A stretch of 42,866 nucleotides of DNA from a virus (Duplodnaviria; Heunggongvirae; Uroviricota; Caudoviricetes), in IMG/VR virus record IMGVR_UViG_3300046492_000163, positions 64,001 through 106,866 of that record, one strand, 5' to 3'. A program made the translations under genes and the position numbers. Below the pieces are notes generated by a model that worked only from the letters and a program-made list of their open reading frames with translations, searched no databases and was not told the DNA's origin. The stretch's first letter is position 1, and each line of letters begins with the position of its first letter. Below are positions 3,051 through 26,392 of the stretch, piece by piece.

Positions 3051-5696
3051 TTAGTGGCAGTCCTTCCAAGAACGGCCTAGGACGTACCCGGCATCGAGCG
3101 GAACATTCAACTTGAAGTCCATGTTGACCCGTTGAACGGCCTCGGAGATGAGTTCGCCTTGGCGGCAGTACGCAACAAACCATGCTGTATCTGTGTGCTG
3201 TACGTCGCTCCAGGTGCCTTCTTGTTCAGACTTCCAATCAGCAACTACTTTTTCGCATCGCGCATCTTCTGCCTTCTGCAAGTCTTTGCGGATCTTGGAA
3301 TCTTCGTGCTCGATCTTCTGCCAGCCCAACATCTGCTTGGTGAAGACTTTGAACTTGACCGATTCTTTATTAACTTCGCCTTGGGCTTCGTCGTGCATGG
3401 CAATCATCTGCTGCCACCAGTTCTGTACTTCGTCCAGAGACTGGGTGAAGAAGTCCACAATCATGCCTTCAGCGGCTGCCAGGCGGTCGTGGTAAACCAT
3501 TACCTTCTTCGCACATACAACCCCACCACCTTGAAACAAACTGTTCAGGATCGCGTGTGCAGAGCGTGTAGGGATGAGGCGACCATCGATACCGATAATC
3601 CGTTTCTTCTGGAACTGTTTCTCCCACTCCCGTTTCAGTGCATCCTTCAACTTTGCAAGTGGGTCCGCTGCTTCCCAGAACGCATCAAAGACCATCTGTC
3701 CAACAGCCAAGGCAGCACCAATAGTCTTGGCAACTTTCGCGGCCTGGGCACCGTAGGTCGTACCGTACTTAACCGCTTTGGCATCTGTACGTGAGAAATC
3801 ACTCCCGATAATCGCGCTGATCGACTTCGCCATCATGGTGTGAACGTCGAATGGCTTTTCTTGAATCAGCGAGTTGCAATAGGGTTTCCCGCTAGCCTTC
3901 TCGTGGATCCAGCAGTAATGCCCCTCAATGCGTGCCTCAAGCGAACTAAAGTCGTACCCGAGCTGCCATGCCACACGGCTGTCTGCCATGAACAAGGCCC
4001 GCATGTTCTCCCCGTACAGGCTTGTGGAGCGTGGCACATTGACTACCAACCTATGGCGCATTCTCGACGTGGCCGCATCGCATGTACCCGCAGGCGTTGG
4101 GATACGCCCATCCTCGCGAATGTTCGGCAAGTACCCCTTGGAAGTTTGTTCATCTTCCTCATCTTCGAAGTCTTCGAAAGTCTGTCCACCACCCAAGATT
4201 GAGTTACGGCGGTGACGATACGTCAGGTACTCCGTGATGTCGGTAATACATGCCAGCTCTTCAGAACTGTCAGCAATAGCCTGCAAGTTCTTGCAGATTT
4301 CCTTTTCTTGCCCGGTAGTGAAACTTGGGTTGGTCTGAACTTTTAAACCACCACCGCGTTGCTTACGCTTAGCAAAGAAGTTTTCCAGTCGAGCCCGTAC
4401 CTGCCGCTCATTACCAGCAGGCGAGAGTTCCAGAAACTCCATCCGGTCTTTGCGGAACTCGGTATACAGCGTCTGCTCGATGTACCGCGCAATTGCAGCG
4501 TCAAGTTTCTCTGGAGAAAGTTTGATCTTCTTTGAGTCAACCGTGAGGTCTTTCTCTTTGTATTCCAGCGGAACCCAGCCCAGCGATACAAGCCACTCTT
4601 TAATGTGGGTCGTGTCGTTGATTGTGGCCGTCATCGTGGTTTTAAGCGGCACACCCTCTGGCAGAGGGAGCATGTGGCGCTTCCCCTCCCACCAGAATTC
4701 ATAGCCGTCTTCGGTTTCCTTGATTTCAGCACCCAACTTCTCCGCGAACTTCACCAGGTTGGCACTTGGCTCCCCGGTGGACTTCTTGAACTGAAGTTTC
4801 GGCGGGGTATAGTCCTTCATGAACCCCTTAGTTGCTGGACGTGGCGGGATGATCGCTTCAATCTTGATCTTCCGTTCTTCCATCATTGCATCCAACTCAG
4901 CCAGGCACTCTTCAGCCAAGGCTTTATCGAACGCAAATCCCCGGTGCTCCTGACGGGTGATCAGCTCGATAGTTTGCTTCTCCAGCTTGATCGCTGGGTG
5001 CCACTTCTCGTTCCAATCCCACAGGGTCATCTCTGCATCGAGCTTCTTCGCTACAAGCTTGTTCGCCTTCACGTCGAGGATGTTGTAATAGACCATATCG
5101 GCCCCAGATACCAAGAATCGGAAGTCCCGTGGTACGTGCGGTCGGAAGTCCATCTTCTCATCGGTGGACCCGGTAGCCAGGTTCTCCAGGCTGTGCCCAC
5201 CAAATCGATCCGGGTTCAGCGTCTTAGAGCGAACCATTGTGTCGTCAAACACAACCGGTTTACCGTTCCAAGTGTCATCACCCAGCGGCGTATCCATGCC
5301 AATCTCAACTTTATAATCAATACCGAAGTAGAGTTTGATTACCAGCAAGTCGAAGTTGATTTGGTTGTGCGCGATGATCCGGCTTCCTTCCGGAATCCAT
5401 GCCAGAAACTTTGTGAACTCGCTCAGTGGACGATGAACATAGTCTAACGGTTCGTAGCCTTCGAACGTGTACGTGTAAGCGTCATTGACTGCACTGAAGT
5501 CCACGTTGAATGGGCGACCATCAAAGACAAACTTGGGGCCATCGTGGAAGGCAACAATCTTGTCATCGAACTCTACAACGATGCAGTGAATCTTAAAGCC
5601 TTCTTTCAGCTTGTACGGGACCTGGGAGTAATCAATGGAACTACTGTTTAGCAGCCCCGTCGATTCCAAGTCCCAAGTTATATCCTTGGGGGTCAC
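3051..5696 (-). CDS. polA: DNA polymerase, family A, with 3'-5' exonuclease
   Basis: Exo I WDLEST; motif A GYDFSSLEARI; motif B RTDAKAVKYGTTYG; motif C MHDE. Confidence 0.95.
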   Translation of the reverse strand: MTPKDITWDLESTGLLNSSSIDYSQVPYKLKEGFKIHCIVVEFDDKIVAFHDGPKFVFDGRPFNVDFSAVNDAYTYTFEGYEPLDYVHRPLSEFTKFLAWIPEGSRIIAHNQINFDLLVIKLYFGIDYKVEIGMDTPLGDDTWNGKPVVFDDTMVRSKTLNPDRFGGHSLENLATGSTDEKMDFRPHVPRDFRFLVSGADMVYYNILDVKANKLVAKKLDAEMTLWDWNEKWHPAIKLEKQTIELITRQEHRGFAFDKALAEECLAELDAMMEERKIKIEAIIPPRPATKGFMKDYTPPKLQFKKSTGEPSANLVKFAEKLGAEIKETEDGYEFWWEGKRHMLPLPEGVPLKTTMTATINDTTHIKEWLVSLGWVPLEYKEKDLTVDSKKIKLSPEKLDAAIARYIEQTLYTEFRKDRMEFLELSPAGNERQVRARLENFFAKRKQRGGGLKVQTNPSFTTGQEKEICKNLQAIADSSEELACITDITEYLTYRHRRNSILGGGQTFEDFEDEEDEQTSKGYLPNIREDGRIPTPAGTCDAATSRMRHRLVVNVPRSTSLYGENMRALFMADSRVAWQLGYDFSSLEARIEGHYCWIHEKASGKPYCNSLIQEKPFDVHTMMAKSISAIIGSDFSRTDAKAVKYGTTYGAQAAKVAKTIGAALAVGQMVFDAFWEAADPLAKLKDALKREWEKQFQKKRIIGIDGRLIPTRSAHAILNSLFQGGGVVCAKKVMVYHDRLAAAEGMIVDFFTQSLDEVQNWWQQMIAMHDEAQGEVNKESVKFKVFTKQMLGWQKIEHEDSKIRKDLQKAEDARCEKVVADWKSEQEGTWSDVQHTDTAWFVAYCRQGELISEAVQRVNMDFKLNVPLDAGYVLGRSWKDCH

Positions 5697-21788: not shown

Positions 21789-21816
21789 TTGACAAGTAGC
21801 AGAAGTGTCGTAGAAT
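21789..21816 (+). promoter_or_regulatory. Sigma70-type promoter for the RNA island
   Basis: TTGACA-16 nt-TAGAAT with an AT-rich upstream tract. Confidence 0.8.
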
Positions 21817-21830
21817 CCGTAGCTCAAGTC

Positions 21831-21896
21831 AGCCGCAAGGCTACTCCCCCGCTGTCGCCGCAAGGCAAGTATTCGCTTTAAGCCGCAAGGCTACTC
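21831..21896 (+). repeat. Three GCC-GCAA-GGC (GNRA tetraloop) hairpins in the 5' leader
   Basis: AGCCGCAAGGCTACTC at 21831 and 21881; GCCGCAAGGC at 21857. Confidence 0.8.
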
Positions 21897-21902
21897 AGTT
21901 TA

Positions 21903-22027
21903 AGAATCGTTCCAGCAACCCAATTTCATATCCCGCTAAGATCGAGGTCACAGGTTCGAATCCTGTCGCGTGCCCAGTAGGCTCGTGTAGCTCAGTTGGT
22001 AGAGCGCGTAGAAAACCCAACGATTCT
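21903..22027 (+). ncRNA. CAGCAA-family element A: circularly permuted tRNA-like RNA (YrlA-like topology)
   Basis: 9-bp closing stem AGAATCGTT/AACGATTCT; T-arm ACAGG-TTCGAAT-CCTGT precedes D-arm GCTC-AGTTGGTA-GAGC; acceptor halves CGCGTGCC and GGCTCGTG joined by a short loop. Confidence 0.8.
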
Positions 22028-22066
22028 GTTAACACAAAAATAAGACTATTTAAGGGACTAAACTAT

Positions 22067-23449
22067 TTGACCAGTTTCGCGACTGCGTTTAACAACGCCA
22101 CTACAACAACTAACGGCGACTTCGCCTATAAATCCACTCTGGACGCGAACGTAGACTTGTTCTACCAGGCCGGTGCCAGCCGTGGTAAAGAAATTGGAAC
22201 ACTCTTCGACCGGGCAGTTAGTACCAACGAAGAAGTGGCCGTCCGCACCCTACTCTGGTTGCGTGATGCACGAGAAGGTGCCGGTGAACGGCAACAGTTC
22301 AAGAACCTAGTTCTGCGACTGAAGCCTGAAGTTGTACAGAAGTTGATCCCGCTGATTCCAGAACTTGGCCGTTGGGATGATCTACTGGTCTTCTTGGACA
22401 CTCCGTTCGAACGTCAGGCCATGGGCGTAGTTGCCGCAGGCTTGAACATGGGCAACGGCCTGTGTGCGAAGTGGATGCCACGCAAGGGAATTGTGGCCGC
22501 GAAGATCCGCAAAGTCTTGGGCATCAAGAGCCCGAAGTTGTGGCGCCAGTACCTGGTGTCGCTGACTGACGTAGTTGAACAGAAGATGTGTTCCAAGGAC
22601 TGGAGCAGCATTGAGTTCGGCAAAGTTCCATCCGTAGCCGCTGGCCGCTACATCCAGGCTTTCCTCCGCAACGCACCCGATGCGTACAACGAGTACAAAG
22701 AGCGCCTGGTAAAAGGCGAAGCAAAGATTAATGCCGCTGCTGTTTATCCGTACGATGTAGTGAAGGCTCTTCGTAATGGTGATCCAGTTGTAGCAACAGC
22801 CCAATGGAACGCACTTCCGAATTACATGGAAGGAGTTGATGAACGCATTCTGCCGATGATTGATACATCCGGCTCGATGGGTTGTCCAGCGGGTGGTTAC
22901 AGCAGTAACTCCGGTACAACTTGCATGGATGTCGCTGTTTCCCTAGGGATCTATGTCGCACATCGCAACGTAGGCGCCTTCAAGAACATCATGTTGAGCT
23001 TCCACGCACAACCCAAGCTGTTCCAGTTCTCTGGCAACTTCGCTGAAGCGGTGCGACAAGTTGATAGTGCTCCATGGGGCATGAACACCGACATCGAGAA
23101 GGCCTTCATTGAAGTCCTGGCTCGTGCAAGATCACACAATGTCGCTCCGGACCAGATGCCAACCAAGGTATTGATCCTCAGTGATATGCAGTTCGACTTC
23201 TGTGTAAAAGGTATGGGTGCGTACGACAGCATCAAACGCCAGTACGCAGCATCGGGTTACGAACTACCGCAGATTGTCTTCTGGAACATCAATAGTTCCG
23301 CTGGCACTTCCCCGGTAACTATCGGAACTAAGGGAACTGCACTAGTTAGCGGGTTCTCGCCATCGATCCTCAAGGGGGTTGTAAGCGGTGAACTTGAACC
23401 AGCGAAAGTTATGCTCGCGACTGTAATGTCAGAGCGTTACGATTACTGA
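22067..23449 (+). CDS. Ro60/TROVE-like RNA-binding protein (DUF2828-type helical domain + C-terminal vWA)
   Basis: TTNGD...STLDANVDLF, LLWLRDAREGAGER, ELGRWDDL, AKWMPR, VPSVA, MIDAS motif MIDTSGSM, LILSDMQFD, IVFWN, ALVSGFSP. TTG start with AAGGG upstream. Confidence 0.8.
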   Translation: MTSFATAFNNATTTTNGDFAYKSTLDANVDLFYQAGASRGKEIGTLFDRAVSTNEEVAVRTLLWLRDAREGAGERQQFKNLVLRLKPEVVQKLIPLIPELGRWDDLLVFLDTPFERQAMGVVAAGLNMGNGLCAKWMPRKGIVAAKIRKVLGIKSPKLWRQYLVSLTDVVEQKMCSKDWSSIEFGKVPSVAAGRYIQAFLRNAPDAYNEYKERLVKGEAKINAAAVYPYDVVKALRNGDPVVATAQWNALPNYMEGVDERILPMIDTSGSMGCPAGGYSSNSGTTCMDVAVSLGIYVAHRNVGAFKNIMLSFHAQPKLFQFSGNFAEAVRQVDSAPWGMNTDIEKAFIEVLARARSHNVAPDQMPTKVLILSDMQFDFCVKGMGAYDSIKRQYAASGYELPQIVFWNINSSAGTSPVTIGTKGTALVSGFSPSILKGVVSGELEPAKVMLATVMSERYDY

Positions 23450-23473: not shown

Positions 23474-23527
23474 AGGATGGTTACAGCAACCCAACTACTT
23501 TTATTGGAAAAAGAAAACTCCATCCTG
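23474..23527 (+). ncRNA. CAGCAA-family element B
   Basis: AGGATGG/CCATCCT stem, TTACAGCAA, internal CTTTT-ATTGGA-AAAAG hairpin. Confidence 0.7.
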
Positions 23528-25182: not shown

Positions 25183-25251
25183 AGAGTGCTTACAGCAACC
25201 CAAACTGGAAAGCCTTAAAAGCTGCGGTTTCAATACCGCAAATGCACTCTG
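25183..25251 (+). ncRNA. CAGCAA-family element C
   Basis: AGAGTGC/GCACTCT stem, TTACAGCAA, AGC-CTTAAAA-GCT hairpin, GCGGT-TTCAAT-ACCGC T-like hairpin. Confidence 0.72.
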
Positions 25252-25263
25252 CGATCAAGTTCT

Positions 25264-25375
25264 AGGATGAATACAGCAAACAACTGTCCCGCCAAAATCT
25301 GGGAACGTAGTGTAAAGGCGCACGCCGAAGTTTACTTCGGAAGTCAGGGTTCGAATCCCGCGAAAAATCATCCTG
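25264..25375 (+). ncRNA. CAGCAA-family element D with an embedded tRNA core
   Basis: AGGATGA/TCATCCT stem, ATACAGCAA, D-like arm, CCGAAG-TTTA-CTTCGG, GGG-TTCGAAT-CCC; no acceptor stem or CCA. Confidence 0.72.
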
Positions 25376-25571: not shown

Positions 25572-25632
25572 AGGCTGCTTACAGCAAACCATACTATTTG
25601 ACTCGTAAATCAAACCAAAGAATGGCAGCCTG
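25572..25632 (+). ncRNA. CAGCAA-family element E
   Basis: AGGCTGC/GCAGCCT stem, TTACAGCAA, TTTGA-CTCGTAAA-TCAAA hairpin. Confidence 0.7.
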
Positions 25633-26303: not shown

Positions 26304-26392
26304 AGTAGATTGACCGAGCTGGACGAAGGTAGCGGTTTGCTAAACCGTAGGGTATAACAGCCCCGTGCGTTCGAATCGCACATCTACTGCCA
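26304..26392 (+). tRNA. trnS: tRNA-Ser (GCT)
   Basis: GCGGT-TTGCTAA-ACCGT; long variable arm; G73; CCA. Confidence 0.92.

Follow-up and report, generated by a model that had tools for sequence, protein, structure and literature searches.

The virus record IMGVR_UViG_3300046492_000163 (Caudoviricetes) is complete at 106,866 bp with direct terminal repeats, and its final 42.9 kb (positions 64,001 to 106,866; 42,866 nucleotides) were analysed here as one stretch, referred to below as the window. On the plus strand, at about 21900-22031, the window carries a structured non-coding RNA, element A, which lies just 5' of a gene for a 460-amino-acid Ro60-like protein (22067-23449, plus strand) and ends 35 nt ahead of its start codon. 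A preliminary description, made from the sequence alone, had read this region as a tRNA with its halves in reversed order and had offered two interpretations, a Y-RNA-like tRNA mimic or the precursor of a permuted tRNA, of which fold, covariation and gene context favour the first.

Results

Element A consists of a tRNA-like head mounted on a stem and its flanking single strands, together called the handle; all of its parts are on the plus strand. The handle opens with the 5' strand of a terminal helix, P1 (AGAATCGT, 21903-21910), which forms 8 bp with the 3' strand ACGATTCT at 22020-22027, a pairing supported by covariation. Next comes an unpaired CAGCAA motif (21913-21918, within the CCAGCAA read at 21912-21918) that is the presumed protein-binding site. 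The head begins with an anticodon-like hairpin, ATC/CCGCTAA/GAT (21930-21942), made of a 3-bp stem (tRNA positions 29-31:39-41) and a 7-nt loop with GCU at the anticodon position. It is followed by CG at 21943-21944 (positions 42-43), which pairs with CG at 22007-22008 as anticodon-stem pairs 27-28:42-43, by a 5-nt variable loop, AGGTC (21945-21949), and by a T-arm, ACAGG/TTCGAAT/CCTGT (21950-21966), identified by both the Rfam YrlA alignment and covariation. A capped acceptor-like hairpin then occupies 21967-21987 (CGCGTGC, C73, the loop CAGTA, G-1 and GCTCGTG), with 7 bp that include one U.U mismatch (U3.U70), plus a G-1:C73 pair. U8 and A9 (21988-21989) lead into the D-arm, GCTC/AGTTGGTA/GAGC (21990-22005), also placed by the Rfam YrlA alignment, after which G26, C27 and G28 extend to 22008. 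An A-rich linker, TAGAAAACCCA (22009-22019), joins the head to the 3' strand of P1, and the element closes with a GTTA tail (22028-22031); the A-rich linker, stem and (C)TGT tail recur in other handles.

Read by eye, 20 of 21 canonical invariant or semi-invariant tRNA positions are present, the exception being C33, and the nucleotides for tertiary interactions are in place (U8, A14, G15:C48, G18, G19, A21, G26, G46, U54-U55-C56, A58 and G53:C61). Because the CG pairs 27-28:42-43 are joined by pairs 29-31:39-41 of the small hairpin, a 5-bp anticodon stem results whose 3' strand runs without a break; the only opening in the chain is between anticodon-stem positions 28 and 29, and it is there that the terminal helix joins. 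Element A is thus a full class-I tRNA cloverleaf, with a loop-capped acceptor, carried on a stem through a three-way junction. All of the arms listed in the preliminary description were located within 21903-22027, and the topology that it had proposed, in which the T-arm comes ahead of the D-arm, a loop caps the acceptor and a terminal stem closes the element, is borne out. In its native order the element was called neither by ARAGORN nor by the Rfam tRNA model; an ARAGORN tRNA call was obtained after its halves had been rejoined in silico. A search for a parent tRNA among the 236 tRNAs of the window and the loci fetched for comparison gave no close match. The reverse complement of the anticodon-like loop occurs nowhere in element A or in the leader that precedes it, with a few copies elsewhere in the window, and no internal pairing partner is therefore proposed for the loop. 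A further short helix between handle and head, P2 (TTTC/GAAA), was tried and set aside as possible only, with one compensatory change and no alignable counterpart in distant relatives.

Close relatives of the Ro60-like protein were found in metagenomes and in one Pseudomonas isolate, and 12 loci with 55-92% protein identity were fetched. Pseudomonas sp. P8_250 has a relative on a 101.5-kb contig, where the protein is 79% identical. A covariance model places element A directly 5' of the gene in 11 of the 12, at 20-35 nt from the start codon. The structure was assessed on an alignment of 14 sequences, with six helices and 29 pairs, against controls in which columns were shuffled or pairing partners were slid by 1-3 columns. 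The six helices were paired in 97.5% of cells, compared with 81% in shuffled and 32-46% in slid alignments; 19 of the 29 pairs had changed on both sides, and no shuffle out of 500 reached the observed values. All 8 pairs of P1 were paired in 100% of cells, with compensatory changes in 4, and the 5 pairs of the T-arm were likewise 100% paired, with compensatory changes in 3. The acceptor-like stem showed compensatory changes in 7/7 pairs and was paired in 94.9% of cells. The anticodon-like stem exists as ATC/GAT, ACT/AGT and ACA/TGT, so that each of its three pairs has changed on both sides, and the adjoining CG:CG pairs 27-28:42-43 are kept in 12 of the 14 sequences, with UA pairs instead in one. 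Residues that form the tRNA elbow and core are invariant, as are GGTC of the variable loop and residues G16, C17 and A18 of the handle motif; the D-arm is nearly so, G18 and G19 included. Element A is a real, selected RNA structure.

An inert relic, whether a scrambled tRNA pseudogene or the remnant of an attachment site, would be expected to look otherwise. Degenerate tRNAs are indeed found in the tRNA clusters of phages, the 3' half of a tRNA is often part of a phage attP site, and GenBank labels a neighbouring unit in Citrobacter phage Ci1 a tRNA pseudogene. In element A, however, compensatory changes hold every helix paired, the opposite of a neutral pattern, and such covariation speaks for excluding a functionless origin; the design is, moreover, conserved from Pseudomonas-type elements to a mycobacteriophage and is also present in Felix O1, a lytic phage. 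We regard a relic as scarcely credible.

A coding role was rejected as well: for the 46-codon open reading frame (ORF) on the minus strand at 21895-22035, this was because no reading frame is conserved across the orthologues. A megablast search of the locus against the phage collection gave zero matches. In locus L092 (55% protein identity; loci are named by L number only where they need to be told apart), a headless mini handle replaces element A, and three more mini handles precede it (region 3700-4000).

The anticodon-like loop, listed in the preliminary description as an extra feature, proved to be genuine and to covary within the window's clade. It reads CUGCUAA or AUGCUAA in eight relatives, AUGUUAA in one and CCGCUAA in the window, and the clade's pattern, Y/A32-U33-NNN-A37-A38, is at the level of sequence the canonical anticodon-loop signature. 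After rejoining, ARAGORN assigned the anticodon GCU in nine sequences, GUU in L091 and UUG in L090. In the distant elements of L093, L007 and mycobacteriophage Lumos, a plain 5-bp helix continues towards the handle in place of the anticodon hairpin, as in YrlA. The retained CCA of the preliminary description held in part: C73-C-A is present in the window, where the acceptor 3' strand continues C-C-A-G, and also in L084, but the full N73-CCA is absent, and CCA is missing in 9 of the 13 other aligned sequences. Among the other members of the clade only L090 has it, as a true C73-CCA; the remaining members have unrelated and unconserved capping loops of 4-12 nt. The permuted heads of L031 and L010 combine a G3:U70 wobble with A73, an alanine identity signature common with transfer-messenger RNA (tmRNA).

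These details bear on the possibility that element A is a permuted tRNA gene, in which the acceptor loop would be cut, and the RNA perhaps circularised and re-opened, to yield a chargeable tRNA for AGY codons. The cloverleaf is complete with its canonical tertiary nucleotides and is called as tRNA(GCU) once rejoined, an exact N73-CCA follows the acceptor 3' strand in L031 (4049-4180), L042 (4095-4228), L010 (4444-4569) and L090 (357-486), and the YrlA RNA of M. smegmatis is known to be cut by RNase P and to receive CCA in vivo (PMC4201824). However, the acceptor has a U.U mismatch in the window and two mismatches in L084, conservation extends neither to its loop nor to the CCA, and the handle interrupts the anticodon stem at 28/29. 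Element A also differs from the window's 13 genuine tRNA genes, every one of which ends in purine73-CCA. The GCU anticodon is accompanied by a 5-nt variable loop, unlike that of bacterial tRNA-Ser, which needs a long variable arm; the anticodon position itself varies among relatives (GCU, GUU, UUG), and a normal tRNA-Ser(GCU) is already encoded at 26304-26392. The RtcB ligase and CCA-adding enzyme families were searched for in the 107-kb genome and neither was found. With its mismatched and variable acceptor, unconserved CCA and interrupted anticodon stem, a permuted tRNA precursor, the second interpretation of the preliminary description, is very unlikely.

The protein encoded next to element A matches the Pfam families DUF2828 and DUF7788 (5.7e-22 and 1.4e-41). 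Pfam TROVE gave no match to it, and a phmmer search of the 460-amino-acid sequence against PDB sequences found no Ro60. An AlphaFold2 model built with 54 homologues (pLDDT 83, pTM 0.80) gave a different picture: its top 13 structural matches in the PDB were all Ro60 proteins, aligned over the whole length with TM 0.42-0.64, and isolated von Willebrand A (vWA) domains came next. The best Ro60 matches include Xenopus Ro, human Ro60, Deinococcus Rsr and the Ro60 of Thermus phage phiLo, to which sequence identity is 11-17% across the Ro60 structures. Because the best PDB matches of the predicted model are Ro60 structures, the term 'Ro60-like' is justified at the level of the fold; the gene name used in the preliminary description stands in that sense, although the Pfam family is DUF2828/DUF7788 and not TROVE. 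Homologues of the DUF2828 protein are present in at least 710 phage records, where submitters have labelled them RNA-binding protein, Ro-like RNA binding protein or vWFA protein.

Element A is one member of a larger family. When 80 metagenomic phage loci with genes for homologues were searched, many short matches retained only the ends of the model, with variable inserts between them. What is retained is a terminal helix of 7-9 bp that covaries, followed by (U)YACAGCAA in unpaired form, and on the 3' side an A-rich linker and a (C)UGU tail. Element A itself combines the conserved helix structure, the CAGCAA motif, the A-rich linker and the tail on the same strand near a DUF2828 gene. About 150 elements next to DUF2828 genes have YACAGCAA after the 5' strand of their stem. 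A motif scan of 98 loci found 188 handles on the strand of the gene and 41 on the opposite strand, and 90 of the 98 loci, including those of Felix O1, RSP15 and Lumos, have at least one handle; among the 188 gene-strand handles 119 are 'mini' and 22 have a T-arm followed by a D-arm. In the literature searched, no published description of a CAGCAA-handle RNA family was found.

Four sister elements lie downstream in the window, all on the plus strand. Element B (23474-23526), 25 nt past the stop codon of the Ro60-like gene, is a handle with a small hairpin only and was found with model R1 (31.6 bits) and the motif scan. Elements C (25183-25250) and E (25573-25630) were identified by motif scan and fold, and element D (25264-25374) by both of these and a match to model R1. 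Element D has a tRNA-like core in the normal order of D-arm, anticodon-like arm and T-arm, with the handle helix at the place of the acceptor stem, and is a third way of coupling a handle to a tRNA body. The P1 sequences differ among the five copies in the window; it is structure and not sequence that is conserved. Across the whole 107-kb genome, matches to model R1 are confined to this RNA island, and no Rfam family matches elements A-E at its gathering score. Model R2, trained on the window's clade and two metagenomic contigs only, gave full-length matches outside its training set in Lumos (79.7 bits), L031 (73), L042 (70), the Ralstonia phage RSP15 (54.3) and Felix O1 (43). As predicted from such matches, the combination of a permuted tRNA head with a CAGCAA handle recurs next to DUF2828 genes, from phages of proteobacteria to one of an actinobacterium. 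The uncultivated contig L031, which bears handle RNAs, also encodes at 5008-5083 an ARAGORN tRNA with the anticodon CTA (amber-suppressor type, labelled tRNA-Pyl).

Upstream of element A, a sigma-70-type promoter-like site on the plus strand (TTGACA, 16 nt, TAGAAT; 21789-21816) has 11/12 consensus matches. The pattern TTGACA-N16-TAnAAT precedes element A in 7 relatives, and TTTACA...TAGAAT was read by eye in the upstream sequence of two further ones. From its position, this promoter-like site would direct transcription of the leader and, behind it, of element A and the Ro60-like gene. The leader (21831-21892, plus strand) contains three near-identical GCAA-tetraloop hairpins of the GCCGCAAGGC type (21831-21842, 21857-21866 and 21881-21892); those of the relatives have one to three similar hairpins. 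A Shine-Dalgarno-like AAGGGA, noted by eye, is 8 nt ahead of the TTG start codon.

One explanation for this arrangement is that element A is a cis-acting leader, in which the handle would be an operator in the 5' untranslated region for autoregulation of translation by the DUF2828 protein and the head would merely stabilise it. The element does follow a conserved promoter and precede the start codon, at a distance from the latter of 20-35 nt in 11 of the 12 relatives, and no terminator-like site was found between it and the ORF. Handles are, however, also found 3' of the gene and among tRNA genes rather than ahead of ORFs (elements B-E; Felix O1, RSP15 and Lumos), and a full tRNA core that is highly conserved, together with an anticodon hairpin that covaries, exceeds what a stabiliser needs. 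As a sole account we consider it unlikely; autoregulation by a leader and a role as a partner RNA are compatible and do not exclude each other.

Discussion

We propose, with a probability of roughly 65%, that element A is a phage counterpart of the bacterial Y RNAs and the partner of the Ro60-like DUF2828 protein, with a head that mimics tRNA. The proposal draws on a fold established by covariation, on the Ro60-like fold predicted for the protein and on the genomic coupling of handles to DUF2828 genes across distant phages. Transcripts of the Ro60-like gene would start from the promoter at 21789-21816 with element A as their leader, and the element would then be excised from them. The handle (P1, CAGCAA, the A-rich linker and the GUUA tail) would dock on the Ro60-like DUF2828 ring protein, and the head would be displayed to host factors that recognise tRNA (modification enzymes, RNase P, nucleases or defence proteins). 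By analogy with YrlA and the Y RNAs, the resulting ribonucleoprotein (RNP) might thereby be tethered to such factors or act as a decoy. The covarying anticodon arm suggests that the factor engaged reads the anticodon loop; that the RNA might be a decoy for a tRNA-directed nuclease is speculation.

Several points weigh against this proposal. We infer the production, excision and binding of the RNA, as well as the identity of the host factors. Because the Ro-binding motif of YrlA, GNCGAAN0-1G, is absent, the case for protein binding comes from co-occurrence, and because L092 has a mini handle at this site and 119 of the 188 handles are 'mini', the head is not essential to the family. A cis-regulatory role, too, would be in keeping with the site of element A, which has the promoter on one side and the start codon on the other. 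In the Vibrio phage KVP40 (L096), a simple motif scan that covered 3 kb on either side of the homologue detected no CAGCAA handle; any partner RNAs that this homologue has are elsewhere or have diverged.

Ro60 and its Y RNA form a classic RNA-surveillance particle, and the bacterial Y RNAs are the best-known tRNA mimics. The present data point to a second, larger branch of the Ro60 fold, in at least 710 phage genomes, that is paired with a handle-RNA family of its own. In the window's clade the RNA goes beyond YrlA and copies the complete tRNA inside-out, anticodon arm included. Because a Ro60-like protein of phage Bas63 is reported to counter a bacterial defence system (PMC11482910), these RNAs may be the counterpart still missing from a device for anti-defence or tRNA quality control. 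The handle is also shared with the Class I RNAs of Dictyostelium, and the old question of what those RNAs do may become approachable in phage systems. The design lends itself to binding, RNase P cleavage and decoy assays.

Comparison with known systems

The permuted tRNA genes of Cyanidioschyzon merolae and the two-piece tmRNA made from a permuted ssrA give chargeable products with a conserved CCA end. Element A has the same order of halves, with the 3' half (T-arm and acceptor 3' strand) ahead of the 5' half (acceptor 5' strand and D-arm), but its CCA and acceptor loop are not conserved, and it is opened inside the anticodon stem, where the handle is attached. Units in Citrobacter phage Ci1 (L001, 4891-5062) and in the uncultivated L010 (4396-4575) also combine a tRNA body with a CAGCAA handle beside a DUF2828 gene. 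They are, in contrast, circular permutations of element A with an open acceptor that ends in N73-CCA: the handle is a roughly 50-nt insert that replaces the anticodon loop, and a small loop closes its terminal helix. The Rfam tRNA model gives the Ci1-type unit 55.4 bits with the 50-nt insert. These units stand in tandem, and each acceptor 3' strand can pair with the upstream or the downstream 5' strand.

One can imagine, extending such analogies, that host RNase P cuts the capped loop of element A and that the 3' end is trimmed and rebuilt to CCA, as in M. smegmatis YrlA, which would leave on the Ro60-like ring a two-piece, handle-bearing tRNA whose anticodon loop is real. The particle would act on host machinery directed at tRNA, for instance by soaking up an anticodon nuclease or another tRNA-targeting defence, or by entering the ribosome; the permuted and Ci1-type forms would then be two solutions for one chimeric RNP, and the handle would be homologous to that of the Class I RNAs. 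We offer this as a conjecture that is probably wrong.

For the handle of the Y RNA counterpart that we favour, the Class I RNAs of Dictyostelium (RF01414) provide a parallel. In both, a short terminal stem starts with G and has UUACAGCAA unpaired beside it, the 3' side is rich in A, and the 3' end is CUG(U). The RF01414 model aligned over its whole length, with UUACAGCAA, A-rich 3' side and CUG end included, to element B (23.7 bits) and element E (22.9 bits), both below its gathering score of 41.5; it did not match element A. According to Kjellin et al. 2021 (PMC7919456), an 11-nt motif lies next to the short terminal stem of a Class I RNA, whose 3' end is CUGU; dictyostelids are the only organisms from which these RNAs have been reported, and the protein that they bind has an RNA recognition motif. 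At 42-65 nt they differ from element A, which is twice as long and has a tRNA-like head. The comparison of sequences confirms the resemblance between handle and Class I RNAs; homology is not claimed.

Among phage proteins, the Ro60 of Thermus phage phiLo is reported to bind two phage Y-like RNAs and host PNPase (PMC12135203). As at the present locus, a phage protein of the Ro60 fold has partner RNAs (Yrl1 and Yrl2; PDB 9KOP and 9L5Y) encoded just upstream, and 9KOP was the second-best structural match to our protein model. The phiLo RNAs differ in having been found through a CGAA motif and in their stem-bulge-stem shape, and the passages of that account used here describe neither a tRNA-like domain nor a CAGCAA handle (PMC12135203). 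A preprint reports that the Bas63 protein gp130, whose structure is Ro60-like, acts against the ppl defence system (PMC11482910); gp130 is likened here by structure and not by DUF2828 membership. The authors of the preprint guessed that some of the neighbouring 'tRNA genes' are Y RNAs (PMC11482910).

Element A resembles YrlA, a tRNA-mimicking Y RNA of bacteria and phages (Chen et al. 2014, PMC4201824), in the order of T-arm, capped acceptor-like stem and D-arm, in the helix that closes its ends and in its conserved elbow nucleotides; the protein encoded beside it is of the Ro60 type by its predicted fold. Binding of YrlA to Rsr and its modification by TruB and DusA are established, and YrlA and Y RNAs gate Ro60 and tether it to PNPase. 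Searched with the Rfam YrlA model (RF02553), element A scored 32.5 bits (E = 2.6e-5) over model positions 24-84 of 114, with a gathering score of 69, and no match anywhere in the window attained that threshold; the YrlA topology named in the preliminary description therefore holds for the order of the core, but membership of the Rfam family does not. One explanation for the partial match is that element A is a true YrlA, bound in the same way by a Ro60 orthologue, that has drifted below the threshold. The alignment of the tRNA-like core would fit this, as would the Ro60 fold predicted for the neighbouring protein and the element of Lumos, which matches over the full model at 39.3 bits. Against it, these scores are far under 69 bits, and the terminal part of the model, with GNCGAA, is unaligned in element A and, as its terminal motif, also in Lumos. 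In YrlA the Ro60-binding motif GNCGAAN0-1G is on the 5' strand of the terminal helix (PMC4201824), whereas element A lacks it and has AGAATCGTT-CCAGCAA as 5' strand and adjacent loop, part of the strongly conserved CAGCAA handle; its sole CGAA belongs to the T-loop. Pfam places the partner gene in DUF2828/DUF7788 and not in TROVE, and its product has the low identity to Ro60 structures given above. Finally, the clade of element A has four tRNA arms with a separate anticodon-like hairpin that has no YrlA counterpart, where the anticodon-stem position of YrlA continues into the Ro-binding stem. A divergent but true YrlA is for these reasons quite improbable, and element A is most likely a YrlA-type, Y-RNA-like mimic that belongs to the DUF2828 branch and is set apart by its handle and, in this clade, by its complete anticodon arm.

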